From positions 124,062,001 through 124,126,000 of the forward strand of contig OX597816.1 in assembly GCA_951406725.2 (NCBI GenBank): 64,000 nt of DNA, in the 5' to 3' direction. The notes beneath the pieces are model-generated. The model was not told the origin of the DNA, searched no databases, and saw nothing but the letters and a program-made list of their open reading frames with translations. This document shows positions 4,667 through 61,117 of the stretch, one piece after another. Within the stretch, counting starts at the first letter, position 1. Each line of letters opens with the position of its first letter. The translations under genes were made by a program, and so were the position numbers. This stretch comes from Octopus vulgaris (taxonomy: Eukaryota).

Positions 4667-5543
4667 CAAGGTGGTATCAAAAAGTTCCTGGATTACTTCT
4701 GTAGCATGCCAACAGATGGCAGCACATGATTGCATGCACAGTGAAAGCTAGCAGTGATGTTCCCGAGGCAGTATGCCAAGTGACATTGTTTTGTTTACTT
4801 CATAAGTTGTGAAATTTGTGTTTTTTGTGATTAGATGTATGCTGCATGAACAAAGAGCTAGCGCAAAATTTTGCATTAAACTTGGAAAGTCTGCTACAGA
4901 GAAATTGAGCATGTTTCAGCAAGTTCACAGCGACAAGGCAATTGACTGTATGCAATGTTCTGAGTGGCACAGGTGCTTCAAAAATGGAAGAACATCTCTA
5001 AAAGATGATGAGTGATCTGGAAGAACTGCCACAAGTGTCACCCCCAGAAATGTGGTATTGTGCATTGTAAATTTATCCTTTAGGGCAGACCAGCAATCAA
5101 GAGTTCTACTGTGGCATTTTGAAGCATTTGAAGGAGGCCATTTGGCAAAAGTGACTGGATCTGTGGAGTGCAAAGAACTGCATTCTTCATGGTGAAAATG
5201 CATCGCCACCAAGCTCTCCTCACTTGTGAGTTTCTTATCCAAAACAACATGGTATCACTTCTGCACCCACCCTATTCACCAGATTTAGCACCTGCAGGCT
5301 TCCATCTCTTCCCCAAGATGAAAATGCAGCTCAAAGGTTACTGTTTTTACAAGATCCAGAATGAATTGCAAAAGGTCCTCAACTCGCTTACGAAAAATGA
5401 CTTCCAGGCCAGATTCCGAAAGGGACAGGAAGGCTGGTACCAGTGTATTGCTGCACAAGGTGACTATTTCGAATGAGATAATAATGAAATAAATTATCTT
5501 TTATTAAAGATAACTAGTCTGGGAACATTTTAATACCACCTCG
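4667..5543 (+). mobile_element. Mariner transposon, internally deleted
   Basis: Imperfect TIRs caaggtggtatcaaaaagttcc / ggaacattttaataccacctcg flanked by TA; HTH EQRASAKFCIKLGKSATE; HPPYSPDLAPAGFHLF. Confidence 0.92.
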
Positions 5544-15510: not shown

Positions 15511-16117
15511 TTTTGTATAGGAAGGGGACTATTTCTCTTATTAGAGGTAAATATTGGACCTCTGATGAAGAGAGGATTTGGTAGAGTGAGAAGAAACCCA
15601 GTTTGTGTGTGTGTGTGAGTGTGTGCCTATGTGCATGCATGTGTTGTATGTTTGTGCATGCATATGTGTGCCCATTGATGTGTGTGTGTGTGTGTGTATG
15701 TGTGTGTGTGTGTATCCCCTTGTCATTATATCACACAACAGAATAAGCAAGTGTCACCATTGCACCAATAGTGTTCTGTGCTTCCAATCTTTAATGAAAA
15801 CATGCTCAGCCATAGGAAAATATTACTTTGACATCAGAAAGGGTATAACTGACTGCAGGAAGCTTGCTTCAATAAATTCCATCTGACCCATACAAGCATG
15901 GAAAATTGGATATTGATGACATTTATTAGCAACAGGAGCATTATTAGCACCAAGAGGTAATATTTACCCCCACTTAAATGGGGATGTCCTATTAGAAAAA
16001 AAATAATACTACAATAGTTACCATGGAAGAAACTCTCATATTGGCTTTTGGTACAAAAGGCAGTCTTGTTTTTATCATTGGCAGAGAGATGAATTTCCAC
16101 CATCTTCAGCACTGAGA

Positions 16118-16164
16118 CCACTAGATCACATGATTTTGACCTTGCTTGGTTTCATCAGTGATGG
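16118..16164 (-). ncRNA. Type I hammerhead motif, copy 1 (G12 mutated)
   Basis: ccatca CTGATGA aacc aagcaa ggtc AAAA tcatgtga TC tagtgg. Confidence 0.7.
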
Positions 16165-16472
16165 ACACTTGACCACTAGAGATAGCAGTGACTCATCTCC
16201 CCACCAGCGATATACAGAAAAAGCAGTGGCAGAACAGGCATTGATATCAGGATTAGCCTGCTGTCTTGTTAAAAAATATGCATAAGCAACAGAGGCAGTA
16301 TTAATAGTGAAAGGTAATATTTATCTCCACTTAAATGTGGATGTTCTGTTTGAACAAACTATGCTGTAGTATTTGCTATGAGAAAAACTCTCATATTAGC
16401 TTTTGGTGCAGAATGCACTCTTGTTTATACTGCTAACAGGGAGGTTAATCTTCATCACCTCCAGCACCAAGA

Positions 16473-16519
16473 CCACCAGATCATGTGATTTCAACCTTCC
16501 TTTGTCTTGTCAGTGATGG
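16473..16519 (-). ncRNA. Type I hammerhead motif, copy 2 (G8 mutated)
   Basis: ccatca CTGACAA gaca aaggaa ggtt GAAA tcacatga TC tggtgg. Confidence 0.7.
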
Positions 16520-17057
16520 ACTCTTGACTGCTAGAGATGTTCAAACTGATAATGATGCTCATACTCAGCATCAGTTGTGTCAGTTTCACCATTTGCAAAG
16601 AGGGCTTGCAAAAATCATAGATGTGGTCCTTCTTTACCTGACTGAGGTGTATTGATTTGCTCACTGATGCACAGTGGACTTGTGATTATATTTGCTGCTG
16701 TTGTTGTTCCATATATTCACAAATTTGAAAGATGGAAACAGATGATTAGATCTATTACAATACTTGCAATAATTTGATCCTTGAGATAAAATACCGGCAG
16801 TTCAGATATCTAGCCCACATACTCAGATAGGACAAGAGCAAAATATGAAATATAGCTTTTAGATGGGCACCATCTGCTAAACACTAGCCTGAACATCCAA
16901 AGCAGCGTCTGGAGTAGAACAGTTGAAGACAAGCTAAGATAAATGTATAATCCAAGAAGCAAGCATGATGAGATGCTAAAGACAAGTTTGAATGTCATTC
17001 CATCAAAACCTTATTTGCCAACTGAGGAAAAGTGGTTTAATATAAATACTAAATAAG

Positions 17058-17270
17058 TTGGTGAGCTGGCAGAATTGTCAGTATGCTGAGCAAATGCTTA
17101 GCGGCATTTAATTCCTCTTCCCATTCTGAGTTCAAATCCCACCAAGATAGACTTTGCCTTTCATCCCTTCAGGGTCGATAAAATTAAGTAGTTTTAAACA
17201 CTGGGGTTGATGTGATTGACTTACTCTCTCCCCTGAAATTGCTGGCCTTGTGCCAAAATTTGAAATCAGT
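17058..17270 (+). mobile_element. SINE family B
   Basis: Homologous to 15303-15510. Confidence 0.75.
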
Positions 17271-23730: not shown

Positions 23731-24006
23731 ATTATGTAGGTAGATTAAAGTCCAAGCTGTGTCCTTTTAAAGAACGTTTGTTTATTAGAAAATTGCTATT
23801 TTTAAATCTCAGAAAGTGAGATATTCAGCAACAGTACTTTGTAGTAAAAATTGTTTACCAACGTAAAATGGCAGTCCTGGTTTACGATGAATGTTGCTGT
23901 AATTAAGCCCCAGGAGACATCATCTCCAGCTGGCTATACGATACGATCTGTGTCCTTATACTTTCAAACAAAGGAATCTAGCACCCCAACTCAGCTCAAA
24001 ACAGTA

Positions 24007-24051
24007 TCTGTGTATCATGATTTCCAGGTTATTTCCCTTCATCAGCACAGA
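24007..24051 (-). ncRNA. Type I hammerhead motif
   Basis: tctgtg CTGATGA agg gaaataa cct g GAAA tcatga TA cacaga: 6-bp stem I and palindromic stem III. Confidence 0.75.
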
Positions 24052-24225
24052 ATAATTGTTATGTAGCAAACAATCTTTACTACAAAGTACTGTTGCTGAA
24101 TATCTAACATTATGAGACTTAAAAATAGTAATTTTCTAATTTATAGATCAGTTACTAGTTGTCACTTTGAAAACTATATATTTCAAACGAGAATTTGGCA
24201 GTACCACTTCTAGCCAAACAATTAT

Positions 24226-24270
24226 TCTGTGCTGAGGAAGGGAAATAACCTGGAAATCACGATACACAGA
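24226..24270 (+). ncRNA. Type I hammerhead motif (inverted sister copy)
   Basis: tctgtg CTGAGGA agg gaaataa cct g GAAA tcacga TA cacaga. Confidence 0.7.
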
Positions 24271-24951
24271 TATTGTTTTGAGCTGAGTGGGTGTGCTAGA
24301 TTCCCTTGTTCGAAAGTATAAGGATACAGATCGTGTTGTATAGCCAGCTGGAGATGATGTCTCCAGGAGCTAAATTACAGCAACATTTGTCCTAAACCAG
24401 GGCTGCCATGTTATGCTGGCAAACAATCTTTACTACAACATTTGTTTATTCTAGTATCTCAATTCCGTATGTAGATATCATATTTATGAGAGGTACATGT
24501 AAGAGTTGAAAATTCAGGAAATATTGCTTGCTGAATAATTACATATCAAGACAGAAGATTGGAAAAATGTTTCATTTGCTGATAGAAGTCACAAAATTGT
24601 ACTTGCAGGATAAACATGTAAGATATCTCCTATTGGAAATTCTTTTGACAGAGAATCAAATAATTTTTAGATATGTGTGTGTACGGGTATATGTGTGTGT
24701 TTGTATTTATATGTATGTATATATATATGTGTGTGGGTGTATACAAAAATACATATATATATATAATATACATATATAAACATACATATATATATATATG
24801 TATATATATACACACACACTATTTGTATATTAATTCTACCATAAGGCTCATGTTAAAAAAGAATCTTAACAATTTTTGAAGTTGATCACATGGAGACATT
24901 GGTGTTCATCTCCATTTTGGATTAAAACACACATTCTCATTGTTCGACATT

Positions 24952-25099: not shown

Positions 25100-25750
25100 T
25101 CTTGACAAATCAGCTGCTACAGAATTTGGTTCTCTACTTGAGCCTGTAATTTCTTTTCCTTCGAATGTATTTTTTATCTTTATTAAATCTCTTGTGCCCC
25201 CTTGTGTGGAATACTGTTATCACATTTGAACTGCTGCCATTGCTCATGTTCTATCTCTCCTTGAATAAGTTCAAAAACAAGTTTCTAACATCATTAGTCT
25301 TGCTTTGGCAGTTAAACTTCAATCCTTCTCTCATTGTCGCTGGAACATTACTTCCTTATCCTTATCCTATGAACACTTCCAGTGCATCTTGTCCTCTCTG
25401 ACATCCTTCTCTTGTACCTCCTTTTTATACTAGTCATTAAGTGATCCTCCTTTCTGTTAATTCTCTTCAGTTTACTAATTTTGACCTTTCCTGTAACAAG
25501 TATTTGTTTTCTAGTTGTTTCTTTTTCATGAACATCTATTTTATGGAACTCTCTTCCTCCTTATTTCCCTGTTAAATACAATCTTAATTGTTTTGATTCT
25601 TGTGTTGAACATTTTGTGATAACTTGGAGCTGATTCTCGTTTGAAAATTGTTGTTAACTTTTCTTTTGTAACTCTCAACATACTCAGTTGTTGCTTGAGG
25701 CCTGTTTCATTGATGCCTTGCTGAAAATAACTTCTAATAAAAAATTAAAG
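25100..25750 (+). mobile_element. CR1/Jockey-group LINE 3' fragment
   Basis: IKSLVPPCVEYCYHI*...LSLLE*VQKQV (cf. YKSLVRPxLEYCxxIW...LLDxVQ). Confidence 0.6.
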
Positions 25751-27063: not shown

Positions 27064-28275
27064 TCATCATCATCGTTTAACATCTGCTTTCCATGCTAGC
27101 ATGGGCTGAAAGGTTTGACTGAGGACTGGCGAGCCAGATGGCTGCACCAGACTCTAATCTGATCTGAAAGAGTTTTTACAGCTCAATGTCCTTCCTAACA
27201 CCAACCACTCCAAGAGCGTAGTGGGTCTTTTATGTTCCACAGGCACAAGGGCCAGCCAGGAAGTACTGGCGACGACCATGCTCAAATGGTGTTTTTTATG
27301 TGCCAACTGCACAGGAGCCAGTCCAGCAGCACTAGCAATGATCTCACTCGAATGTTGTTTTTTCACATGCCAATGGCACAAGTGCCAGTGAGGCGACACT
27401 TGTAACAATCTAGCTCGAAAGGTGCTTTTTATGTGCCACTAGCATGGGAGCCAGTCAGTGGTCCTGGCAATTATCACACTCAGATGGTGCTTTAACATTC
27501 CACTGGCATGGGTGCCAGTCAGGCAGTGCTGTCATCGGCCACGTCAGTGAATTTGATTTTGATTGTGATTTCAATTGTCTCAACAAGTCTTCACAAGCTA
27601 AGTTTAATGTCCAACGATAGAAAGGTATGCATAAGTAGGCTGGTTATACCGTTGGAATAGGCCACAGTTTATAGTCTCAATTGGCTTGCTGGGTTTTCCC
27701 AAGCACAGCATATTTCCAAAGGTCTCAGTTACTAGTCATTGCCTCAGTGAGGTCCAATATTCGAAGGTCATACTTCACCACCTCATCCCAGGTCTTCCTG
27801 GGTCTACCTCTTTCACAGATTCCCTCAACTGCTAAGGTGTGACACTTTTTCACACAGCTGTCCTCATCCACACCACATGACCATACCAGCTCAGTTGTCT
27901 CTTTTACACACCTCAACTGATGCTTTGTAGGTCCAACTTTTCTCTGAAGGTGCTTACACTCTGTTGTGTATGCACACTGACATTACACATCCATCGGAGC
28001 ATACTGGCTTTATTCCTTGAAAGCTTACGCATGTCCTCATCCGTCACAGTCCATGTTTCACTGCCATGTAGCATGGCTGTTCATTTACATGCATCATACA
28101 GTCTACCTTTTACTCTGAGTGAGAGGCCCTTTGTCACCAGCAGAGGTAGGAGCTCTCTGAACTTTGCCCAGGCTATTCTTATTCTAGCAGCTACACTTTC
28201 AGAGCATCCACTCTTGCTACTGACTTGGTCACCTAAGTAACGGGAGCTGTCAACTACTTCTAGTTTTTCTCCCAG
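27064..28275 (-). mobile_element. RTE LINE 3' fragment with tandem-repeat 3' UTR and (GAT)n tail
   Basis: Minus strand RGRPRKTWDEVV; UTR with gtgccac/ggcac subrepeats. Confidence 0.85.
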
Positions 28276-35999: not shown

Positions 36000-36510
36000 A
36001 AAAACCTGGAAAAGACAAGGACATTCCTGAGGATACTTCCTTCGAAGATTTTCTGCTAAAGGCTGATGTCAACCCACAGGAATACCAGGGTGTGGTGAAA
36101 CTAGTGAAATTGGGGAAACAGGTGGTATTGAAGTGTCAACCTTCAGAAAGGTGGGTCTATCAGTATAATCCGAAGATCCTCAAAACCTGGCATGCCGACA
36201 TGGACCTGCAGTTCATCATGGACCCATACTTGTGCATCATGTACATCACCAGTTACATGATGAAAAGTGAGAGGGCTATGAGTGAACTGCTGAAAAAAGT
36301 AGCTGAAGAAAGTAGAGGTGAAGACTTGAAATCAAAACTGAGAATAGTAGGATCAGGTTTTCTGAACAACAGGGAAGTTAGTACTCAGGAGGCTGCCTAC
36401 AGGATCCTCTCCCTGCCACTGAAGAGGGCCAGTTGAAAAATGCTGTTTATCAACACTGCACCAAAAGACAAATGTGTATCCATGCTTAAGCCGCAGAAGA
36501 TCCTCCAGAA
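36000..36510 (+). mobile_element. Helentron/Helitron2 Rep-region fragment
   Basis: YNPKILKTWHADMDLQF...YITSYMMKSE...FLNNREVSTQEAAYRILSLPL. Confidence 0.8.
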
Positions 36511-40022: not shown

Positions 40023-40672
40023 TCATCATCATCATCATCGTTTAACGTCTGCTTTCCATGCTAGCATGGGTTGGACGATTTGACTGAGGACTGGCGAGCT
40101 AGATGGCTACCCCAGGCTCCAATCTTGATCTGGCAAAGTTTCTACTGCTGGATGCCCTTCCTAACACCAACCACTCCGAGAGTGTAGTGGGTGCTTTTAT
40201 GTGCCACTGGCATGGGGGCCAGTCAGGCAGTACTGGCAATGACCTCGCTCAAATCTTTTTACACATGCCACCGGCACAGGTGCTAGTAAGGCGATGCTGG
40301 AAACAATCACACTTGAATGGTGCCTTTTACATGCCACCAGCATGGAAGCCAGTTAGCTGCTCTGACAATGATCATGCTCGGATGGTGCTCTTAGCACCCT
40401 ACTAGCATGGGGCACAAGTACCAGTAAGGCGACGTTGGTAATGATCACACTCGAATGGTGCCTTTTATGTGCCACTGGCACGGAAGCTGGTTAGCCGCTC
40501 TGTCAACGATCACACTCGTATGGTGCTCTTTGCACCCTGCTAGCACGGATGCCAGTCATCGAATTTGATTTCGATTTCACTTGCCTCAACAGGTCTTCCC
40601 AAGCAGAGTTTAGTGTCCAAAGAAGGAAAAGGTATGCATAAGTGGGCTGGTTACGCCTCTGGCATAGGCCAC
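40023..40672 (-). mobile_element. RTE-associated 3' UTR repeat with tandem subunits
   Basis: Homologous to 27064-27700 and 43200-43705. Confidence 0.8.
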
Positions 40673-42699: not shown

Positions 42700-43702
42700 A
42701 AAGTTTAGACAGCTCCTACCCCTACTAGCGACAAAAGGTCTCTCACTCAGAGTGAAAGGTAGATTGTATGATGCATGTGTGTGAACTGCCATGCTTCACG
42801 GTAGTGAAACATGAGCCATGACTGCAGAGGACATGCGTAGACTTGAAAGAAATGAAGCTAGCATGATCCGCTGGATGTGTAATGTCAGTGTGCATGCACA
42901 ACAGAGTGTAAGCACCCTGAGAGAAATGCTGGACGTAAGAAGCATCAGATGTGGTGTGCAAGAGTGATGCTTGCGATGGTATGGTCATGTACTGTGGATG
43001 GATGAGGAGAGATGTGTGAAGAAGTGCCGCTCCCAAACAGTTGAAGGAATCAGGTAGACCCAGGAAGACATGGGATGAGGTAGTCAAGCATGATCTCAGA
43101 GCGTTGGGTCTCACTGAGGCAATGGCAAAGGACCAAGATCTCTGGAGATGTGCTGTGACTGCAAAGACCCGGGCTGCTTCCGGCACCAGTTCCGCATAGC
43201 CCCTGTTCATTCAAAGTACCTTGGATCCCAGAACATTCATTGTGCTTGAGGAGACCTGTTGAGTCAAGTGCATGTACATGAACATCGAAACAAATATCAA
43301 GGAAATAGTAGTTCTGATACCTGTTCCGGTGGCACATAAAAAGCACCATCCGAACGTGGCTGTTGCCAGTGCCGCCTCGACTGGCTTCTGTGCCAGTGGC
43401 ACATAAAAGGCACCATCTGAACGTGGCTGATGCCAGTGCCACCTTGGCTGGCTTCTGTGCCGGTGGCATGTTAAAAGCACCAACCGATCGTGGCCGATGC
43501 CAGACTCCCCTGGCACCTGTGCTGGTGGCACGTAAAAAGCACCCACTACACTCGTGGAGTGGTTGGTGTTAGGAAGGGCATCCAGCTGTAGAAACACTGC
43601 CAGATCAGACTGGAGCCTGGTGCAGCCCCTGGCTTCCCAGACCCCGGTCGAACTGTCCAACCCATGCTAGCGCGGAAAACGGACGTTAAACGATGATGAT
43701 GA

Positions 43703-55449: not shown

Positions 55450-56753
55450 CAGGGTTGGGCAGAGAGGATGGATGTTTTTGAAAATTTCACAAAATCATAA
55501 ATTTTAGCTACAAACAAATTTTACTGACATCAATGTGTTCGTATTGAATTAGCATTTGTCAAAATCAAGTCTGGAAAACAACATCCATCATGTTGATACA
55601 TTTCTGAAGGTTTTCTTGGGAGTTGGCCTTCACTCTCTCCAGCACTGCTCTGTTGAGTTGGGTGACTTCTACATGAATAGTTTCCTTCAAGTCATCAAGT
55701 GTATGAAGCTTATGCACATACACATGTGCCTTAAGGTTTTCTCACAAGAAATACTCATACATGGATAAATCAGGGGATCGAGGGGCCAAGGAATGTCAGC
55801 AAGCCTGGAAATGAGATGGTCACTAAAGAGAGGGTGAAGAACGTTCGTTGATGCTCTAGCTGTGAGGGCCATCATCCCATCCTGCTGAAATCACACATGT
55901 TGAATAGGCATATATTATCGTTGTAATTCAGGCACAAAGAAGTTGTTTATCATCTTGATGTAATGCTCAGAGATTACAGTAACAGCATTTCCATTACTGT
56001 CTTCTGAAAAGTAAGGACCAATGACAGCAGCTTTTCCAACACCACACCAGACCATCATTTTTGGGCTGTGCAGTGGTCTCTTGTGCAGTTCTCTCAGATT
56101 TTCAAGAGTCAAATAATGACAGTTCTGTTGATTCACCATGTTGTTGAAATGAAAATGAGCTTCATTACTCATTAACAAAATGAAGTTGTCATTTGCCTCA
56201 AAAATTGCTTCCATCTGACATGCGAAGTTAAGCTGTTGTGCATAGTTGCATATTTTCAACTGTTGCCCAAAGACCAATTTGTATGGGTGGAAATGCAGGT
56301 CTTTATGCAAAATATGCCTTACTGGTTGATTACCAATGCCAAGTTCAGTGGAATGCTTCTGAGTAGAGCAATTCAGAATCTATATCAATGCTTGTCTGGT
56401 GTGTTCTAGCTTTTCTGTACCATTCATGGCACCCCTACCAGTTTCCTATTCATTGGTGTACCTCGTGTACGAAGTGCATTCACCCAAAGTAAGATTGTGC
56501 TATGGGATTTCAGTAAATGTTGAAGTGGCACCAAAACTTACACTAAACTGCTGTGACAGACTCGTTATTCTTCATGTAACTGGCATAGGCTAACATGTGA
56601 TGCTCGATCATTCACAGCACCAAGGCTTCACCTGAAAAGGAACAAAAATGATAAGACACCACAGATCGAATGGTACCTGTTGGATATGTGTCCCTCCAAC
56701 TAGGGCTGAGTAATAGCCATTTAAAAAATTTCAATCAACTCCACCCCAACCTG
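55450..56753 (-). mobile_element. Near full-length Tc1/mariner-superfamily element (rosa/maT-like), decayed
   Basis: TA-flanked TIRs cagggttggg / cccaacctg; HPYK, SNEAHF, LHSPKMMVWCGV, IGPYF, FQQDG motifs. Confidence 0.85.
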
Positions 56754-56794: not shown

Positions 56795-57378
56795 TGGGCC
56801 TCACTGAGACAATAACAAGTGACCGAGACCTTTGGGCTGAGACCCTTGTGCTTGAGAAGAGCTGGCAAGCCAAGTGGCCTTTTGCCAGTGCACTATAACC
56901 AGCCCATTTAAGAGTACCCTTCAATCATTCTGCAATAAACTGAACTTGCGAAGACTAGTTGAGGCAAGTGAATCATTGTCATGGCCGATGACAGTACCAC
57001 CTGATTGGCTCCCGTGCCAGTGGCATGTAAAAAGCACCATTCGAGTGTGATTGATGCCAGTGCCAGCTGACTGGCTCTGTGCCGGTTGCACATAAAAAGC
57101 ACCATCCAATCATGGTCATCGCCAGTGCCACCTGATTGGCTCCTGTACCCTTGGCAAGTAAAAAGCACCATTTAAACATGGTCGATACCAGTACCGTCTG
57201 ACTGTCCTTCAGGCTGGTGGCATGTAAAAAGCACCCACTACACTCTTGGAGTGGTTGGCATTAGGAAGGGTATCCAGATCGGATTGGAGCCTGGTACAGC
57301 CTTCTGGCTTGCCAGCCCCCCAGTCAAGCCGTCTAACCCATGCCAGCATAGAAAGTGGACCTTAAACGATGATGATGA
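56795..57378 (+). mobile_element. RTE-associated 3' UTR repeat
   Basis: Homologous to 43100-43705. Confidence 0.75.
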
Positions 57379-60467: not shown

Positions 60468-61117
60468 TTAGGTCTCACCAAGGAAATGACTAGAGACCGA
60501 GACCTATGGAAGTATGCTGTGCGTGAGAAGACCCGGCAAGACTAGTCAGGCCATAACCCGTGGCCCCTACCTGGGACGTAGTCAGTCCACCTGTGCATAC
60601 CTTCCTTCTTGTGACACTTGTGAAGACCTGTTGAGGCAAGTGAAAATCAAATCAAATCAAAAAATCAAAAAATCAAACAAAATCAAAATAGATGAACATC
60701 AATGGAATTTGTATCTTTGTGGTACCAGTGCCGGTGGCACACGAGAAAACCATCTGAACGTATCCAAGCGTGGTCGTCTGCTAGCCTTGTCTGGCACCTG
60801 TGTCGGTGGCACATAAAAACACCATCCGAGCGTGGCCGTTCGCCAGCCTCGTCTGGCACCTGTGTCGGTGGCATATAAAAACACCATCCGAGCGTGGCCG
60901 TTCGCCAGCCTCGTCTGGCACCTGTGTCGGTGGCACATAAAATCACCCACTACACTCTCGGAGTGGTTGGCGTTAGGAAGGGCATCCAGCTGTAGAAACA
61001 CTGCCAGATCTGACTGGCCTGGTGCAGCCTTCGGGCTCCCCAGACCCCAGTTGAACCGTCCAACCCATGCTAGCATGGAAAGCGGACGTTAAATGATGAT
61101 GATAATGATGATGATGA
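60468..61117 (+). mobile_element. Young RTE-associated 3' UTR repeat with near-identical subunits of about 62 bp
   Basis: gtctggcacctgtgtcggtggcacataaaa x3; (GAT)n tail. Confidence 0.85.

Follow-up and report, generated by a model that had tools for sequence, protein, structure and literature searches.

Non-LTR retrozymes of metazoans are described as tandem units of 150-450 bp with a low GC content and a canonical type I hammerhead ribozyme, those of mussels measuring 350-390 bp (PMC7229834). In vertebrates, their family means range from 98 to 650 bp, the elements are organized as dimers, and an element counts as active if an intact hammerhead is found in two consecutive units (bioRxiv 10.64898/2026.07.22.740005). 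The same preprint, which has no mollusc among its 35 species, argues that retrozymes originated from the pseudo-LTRs (pLTRs) of Penelope-like elements (PLEs). The pseudo-LTRs of EN+ PLEs have a fixed 3' end that is preceded by a type I hammerhead, are truncated at the 5' end, and are found as insertions longer than one unit in AT-rich or microsatellite targets (PMC4209133; for the Poseidon element PAc, PMC11167929), and their hammerheads are usually of the minimal form (PMC4209133). No cephalopod term was found in passages of the text and supplement of PMC4209133, and in passages of the main text of an Octopus vulgaris repeat annotation (PMC13282606), neither hammerheads nor retrozymes nor ribozymes are named. 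No example of a cephalopod retrozyme turned up in our literature searches, although the supplement of PMC7229834 may list some.

The window analyzed here comprises 64,000 nt of O. vulgaris contig OX597816.1 and consists of AT-rich animal DNA that is dense in microsatellites and short repeats. Within it, we read one locus, with a probability of about 0.78, as a dead 1.7-unit insertion of a non-LTR retrozyme, that is, of a 355-nt noncoding high-copy repeat whose unit includes one canonical type I hammerhead. Its basis is a pair of direct repeats at 15925-16183 and 16282-16538, which are 74.5% identical over 259 columns (E = 4e-43; 193 of 257 columns shared by the two copies are identical) and are spaced by 355-357 bp; tandem repeats of 355 bp had been proposed by a sequence-only reading of this DNA. 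Both copies lie head to tail on the minus strand. Unit A (16282-16538; 257 nt) is the upstream copy and is truncated at its 5' end, the body of unit B occupies 15925-16183, and a 98-nt spacer that occurs once (16184-16281, the 5' part of unit B) bridges the gap from unit A, at its 3' end, to the hammerhead of unit B. The total insertion is thus 614 nt, or 1.73 units. The array is absent from the Tandem Repeats Finder output for the window. The 355-nt unit has a GC content of 38-40% and lacks any meaningful match to Pfam or the PLE profiles, which makes it noncoding. A similarity between 16539-16640 and the spacer (P = 0.26) was rejected.

In these respects, the locus resembles the metazoan non-LTR retrozymes, especially those of Mytilus, with which it shares a tandem unit of ~355 bp, a GC content below 45%, the lack of an open reading frame, a high copy number, and one canonical type I hammerhead per unit with a short helix III and a palindromic loop (PMC7229834). 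It differs from the Mytilus elements described there in that its cores are broken, its family looks old and depleted of CpG, and it has a helix III palindrome of 10 nt. The dimer organization and the unit size are shared with the vertebrate elements, by whose rule of two consecutive intact hammerheads this locus is inactive (bioRxiv 10.64898/2026.07.22.740005).

Hammerhead A (16473-16519, minus strand) has C3 at 16513 and a putative cut after C17 at 16479, and hammerhead B (16118-16164, minus strand) has C3 at 16158 and C17 at 16124. The two C17 positions are exactly 355 nt apart, in agreement with the monomer of about 355 nt that had been predicted between the cut sites, in this case those of the ancestor. 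In both copies, the three stems follow the type I order around CUGANGA, GAAA, and UH, and the form is canonical, with a stem I of 6 bp, a stem II of 4 bp, and 8 nt from GAAA to UC. A descriptor that allowed one core mismatch had a single match in the window, which was copy A. Under the same descriptor, 2 of 12 shuffled windows had one match each, and a 3-bp helix III was found in 0 of 12, so that the match of copy A exceeds chance expectation. Hammerhead B was missed by the strict descriptor; a relaxed scan run without a shuffle control recovered both copies. Rfam had no match in the window at the gathering score, and no hammerhead was among the seven matches with an E value of up to 10.

Hammerhead A reads CCAUCA, CUGACAA, stem II, GAAA, an 8-nt near-palindrome, UC, and UGGUGG, so that its core carries G8>A at 16508. 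Hammerhead B retains CUGAUGA and has AAAA in place of GAAA, which corresponds to G12>A at 16137. The claim that the copies carry different core lesions, both at CpG sites, can therefore be read directly from the letters. Further damage, which the earlier reading had not noted, in A consists of U11.1 (16493), an A.G mismatch in stem II (16503), and a palindrome center changed from CG to CA; in B, it consists of A10.1 opposite C11.1 (16151), a C.A mismatch in stem I (16122), and a palindrome center changed from CG to TG. The helix III palindrome is disrupted in both, and neither present copy has an intact catalytic core: A has lost G8, B has lost G12, and stem II is damaged in each. Judged from these lesions, both hammerheads of the present copies are likely dead; in the Poseidon element PAc, a change of G8 abolishes cleavage (PMC11167929).

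Placing family or partner letters at nine positions makes all 30 pairs of a helix III-swapped dimer canonical. The predicted energy of the helix III self-duplex is -12.9 kcal/mol with the family letters versus -3.8 kcal/mol with the native letters, which fits the expectation of activation by dimerization. Predicted folding, in a model without tertiary energy, does not favor the hammerhead form and makes the helix III-swapped dimer improbable, even with the family letters, and says little about the ancestor. Retrozymes are characterized by expression as highly self-paired circular RNA; folded as a circle, the native monomer shows no unusual self-pairing (z = -0.68).

The lesions of the two copies had been described as complementary. 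They do differ and do lie at CpG sites, but they provide no functional rescue, because in a helix III-swapped dimer CUGANGA and GAAA come from one unit and the lesions cannot repair each other. The differences between units A and B comprise 48 transitions and 16 transversions, and no CpG is left in the aligned copies. Sites that read TG in one copy and CA in the other number 7 (3 of them in the ribozyme), compared with a mean of 0.83 in simulations, none of 5,000 of which reached 7. The apparent complementarity is the expected outcome of CpG decay on opposite strands. Furthermore, mismatches affect 10 of 47 columns in the ribozyme and 54 of 210 in the rest of the unit; the ribozyme is thus no better conserved than the remainder and shows no sign of selection. 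The locus illustrates how a hammerhead core that contains CpG can decay into lesions that merely look complementary.

A surviving activity could be imagined if CUGAUGA of copy B joined GAAA and the cut site of copy A around an open stem II and still cleaved after 16479, since every pair in such a hybrid core is canonical, with A10.1-U11.1. We consider this almost certainly wrong. The predicted energy of the hybrid exceeds that of the free ensemble by 8.8 kcal/mol (P of about 6e-7), it would cut at one site only and so release no monomer, and the ribozyme shows, as noted, no sign of selection. By simple counting, moreover, such a lesion pattern arises in about one in eight cases of random CpG decay.

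Evidence for a family comes from contigs of public sequencing runs aligned to 15880-17080. Each of the four DNA-type runs has between 2,515 and 3,787 contigs on this stretch, mostly less than 90% alike. In run X1, the summed depth, which is not a copy number, reaches 28,549 in the unit versus 22.6 over 16741-17027. Most family contigs cover part of the unit, and coverage of the spacer is far lower. The reconstruction of an intact ancestral hammerhead is supported by other members of the family, in which the lost letters are found: the fourth pair of stem II is restored (16503) in 89% of the X1 contig depth, C11.1 is present in 36%, and G8 is present in 28%, all of these shares being biased toward copies similar to the query. 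U7 accompanies G8 at the same share, suggesting that few family copies keep the CpG. Two presumed RNA runs have 27 and 14 contig records that match the hammerhead region, which is no evidence of expression. The family motif had no match in the metagenome and viral contigs. A general hammerhead pattern found 122 metagenome loci; their similarity did not extend past the core, and those inspected had no endonuclease.

Many family copies end at 16285-16289 and continue into AT-rich flanks with an agreement of ~0.5, and the family therefore has a fixed 3' end, at a distance of ~195 nt on the downstream side of the cut site, which is also where the body of unit B ends. At the opposite side, 63 contigs in run X1 and 57 in run X2 leave at 16538 into the unit's own spacer. 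Depth drops from 2,230 to 26 between 16540 and 16541, where only the locus's own contig crosses. Thus, 16541-17030 is essentially single-copy and lies outside the repeat family. In two runs, contig depth is raised over a stretch of ~45 nt within this flank (16586-16630).

This boundary bears on the proposal that the array is the 3' end of an autonomous PLE, in which a decayed GIY-YIG endonuclease end at 16540-17030 would be followed by two pseudo-LTR copies. The orientation fits, with the hammerheads downstream on the same strand, and behind 19 of 38 PLE endonuclease ORFs a hammerhead follows the stop at a distance of 31-398 nt. By eye, the fragments TVHQ and QINTP recall endonucleases of the mollusc type (RMTVHRQQT). 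Protein searches did not bear this out. In six frames, Pfam (run on 9 and on 4 window frames) detected no GIY-YIG domain here, while two control PLE proteins matched RVT_1 and GIY-YIG. A phmmer search of one frame against 1.84 billion proteins had four matches, all to internally repetitive proteins, which were rejected as repeat-protein artifacts. A word search for GIY-YIG (0 of 33 candidates) and a viral GIY-YIG bait (0 of 30) were likewise negative.

For more sensitive comparisons, genome contigs were scanned with a motif pattern, yielding 93 PLE loci with 81 matching reading frames, and 82 relatives of one mollusc-type endonuclease were added. In searches with profiles built from 64 and 30 PLE endonucleases, the region was not among the best 15 domains listed, and tblastx against the 93 loci had a best E value of 0.18. 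Frameshift-aware alignment (five profiles with two penalties each, on the minus strand of 16540-17039) scored 14.0-19.7 bits, where the background across the window is about 16 +/- 3. Of these 10 tests, the highest score, 19.7 bits, was matched by 36 of 396 window segments and 5 of 200 shuffles. As a control, four endonucleases from outside the mollusc profile, 15% mutated and with 1.5% indels, reached median scores of 36-44 (minimum, 12), and at 25% mutation the scores were just 20-23, which indicates poor power beyond ~25% decay. At the age of the repeat, a remnant would probably have been detected, whereas one of far greater age would have escaped. The homology search that had been suggested for this region thus returned background only.

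Reverse transcriptase (RT) profiles gave no telomerase-like RT here, although one built in the same way picked up a PLE remnant in another part of the window. A plus-strand match by tblastn to an RT thumb at 16835-16990, with an E value of 0.009 for the small region searched, was not confirmed by the RT profile and was discarded as chance. The physical link between the hammerheads and a PLE endonuclease end is therefore unsupported, as the stretch in question lies outside the family and begins with target-like sequence. With no other family contig crossing 16540 and a SINE-like tail starting just ~20 nt from stem I, descent from the end of an autonomous PLE is largely refuted already, and we regard it as very improbable. 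We annotate 16559-17040 as a single-copy flank in which the proposed GIY-YIG remnant is not detected.

The sequence on both sides of the array resembles a split target. At 15865-15920 (plus strand), the 3' end of a SINE-like repeat has its (GAT)n tail cut short by the element, whereas other copies in the window continue into TTAAA(GAT)n. At 16535-16558 (plus strand), there is what is likely the resumed or duplicated tail of that repeat, and the junction shows microhomology of a few bases. Of 18,278 window positions, 0.4% reach its tail score (four tails, chosen post hoc). Target-site duplications of non-LTR retrozymes, where present, exceed 4 bp; here, a duplication-like match at the flanks, decayed to 9 of 10 positions, has a P value of 0.034. 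Since the 3' end of the element adjoins the SINE end and 16535-16558 is tail-like, the element likely split the SINE-like tail, with 16540 onward being host DNA, to judge from these matches. The SINE-like repeats of the window presumably resemble those of octopus genomes. Short tandem arrays at 27281-27457, 40273-40545, 43321-43543, 56980-57235, and 60762-60947 consist of related units of 62-67 bp (or 138 bp) and apparently lie within one SINE-like family.

An origin without a circle has a better claim than descent from an autonomous PLE but is still unlikely in our view. Here, two short 3' ends (pseudo-LTRs) of PLEs or PLE-derived SINE-like elements would have inserted serially, or one old copy would have been duplicated locally. 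The 25% divergence between the units fits two separate insertions as well as one old one, the partial cover of most family contigs and the far lower cover of the spacer point the same way, and PLE insertions are described as 5'-truncated partial tandems (PMC8557442). However, the same colinear head-to-tail junction is spanned by two other X1 contigs that differ at 33-44 letters, and the two flanks resemble one split target. The hammerhead is also canonical instead of PLE-minimal: all 19 hammerheads found behind the 38 PLE endonuclease ORFs have 2-4 nt between GAAA and UC, compared with 8 here. Relative to the EN+ PLE pseudo-LTRs described in PMC4209133 and PMC11167929, with which it shares the 5' truncation, the AT-rich or microsatellite target, the insertion of more than one unit, and the hammerhead upstream of a fixed 3' end, the locus has no RT or GIY-YIG ORF attached, and its hammerhead has 8 nt in helix III and leaves no base unpaired ahead of G10.1. 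The 16538 junction is bridged in run X17, which carries another organism label, with 44 differences in ~590 letters; this indicates that the insertion is old.

Under the retrozyme reading, tandem transcripts of the ancestor would have cleaved themselves at each hammerhead, probably as a dimer via the 10-nt helix III palindrome, and the released 355-nt monomer would have been ligated into a circle. The copying enzyme may have been a reverse transcriptase provided in trans, most likely by a PLE, that used the SINE-like repeat's (GAT)n tail for priming, began downstream of the cut site at a distance of ~195 nt, and copied 614 nt, more than one round, before stopping at 16538. Neutral decay would afterward have turned every CpG into TG or CA and destroyed both catalytic cores. 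The unit had no match by blastn among the 93 PLE loci from other animals, so that mobilization by a PLE would be argued by analogy only.

Other parts of the window contain further features. A second, unrelated hammerhead element at 23784-24438 has inverted arms (23839-24060 and 24217-24438) of 222 nt that are 90% complementary, with type I hammerheads at 24045 on the minus strand and 24232 on the plus strand, in both of which CUGANGA and GAAA are intact. It resembles the inverted arrangement of PLE ends and looks younger than the 355-nt dimer. The RT remnant mentioned above is of Penelope type and lies at 346-600 on the minus strand (19.4 bits; E = 4e-5), which was found with a purpose-built profile and not with Pfam. 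A weak match to the linker before the Poseidon endonuclease (25601-25687, minus strand; E = 7e-4) has no continuation and may be due to chance. Open reading frames at 36002-36436 (plus), 55915-56379 (minus), and 5132-5476 (plus) look by eye like fragments of Helitron and Tc1/mariner transposases; Pfam had no supporting match for these three frames.

Among metagenome contigs, those designated L135-L227 in bacterial and archaeal bins encode animal Penelope-like RT and GIY-YIG frames and are evidently host contamination of the bins. Solo minimal-type hammerhead repeats, homologous over 150-370 nt, occur in animal-like metagenome contigs (L002, L004, L008, L009, L019, L025, L030, L032, L045, L066, L071, L072, and others), with no endonuclease upstream in those that were translated.

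The locus itself carries little weight, being a dead copy of a known class. The family likely extends non-LTR retrozymes to cephalopods. More tentatively, at somewhat less than even odds, we propose a cephalopod retrozyme family whose copies all begin at one internal site ~195 nt past the cut and extend beyond one unit, with a circle as the template and a Penelope-like mobilizer. Internal initiation by an RT has been described in vitro for the Poseidon element PAc (PMC11167929). If this proposal is true, the family would be a fossil record of the movement of animal retrozymes, with reverse transcription of circles from an internal start. The family's combination of a fixed internal 3' end and insertions longer than one unit offers a genome-wide test of which enzyme mobilizes retrozymes in animals and whether it copies circles.
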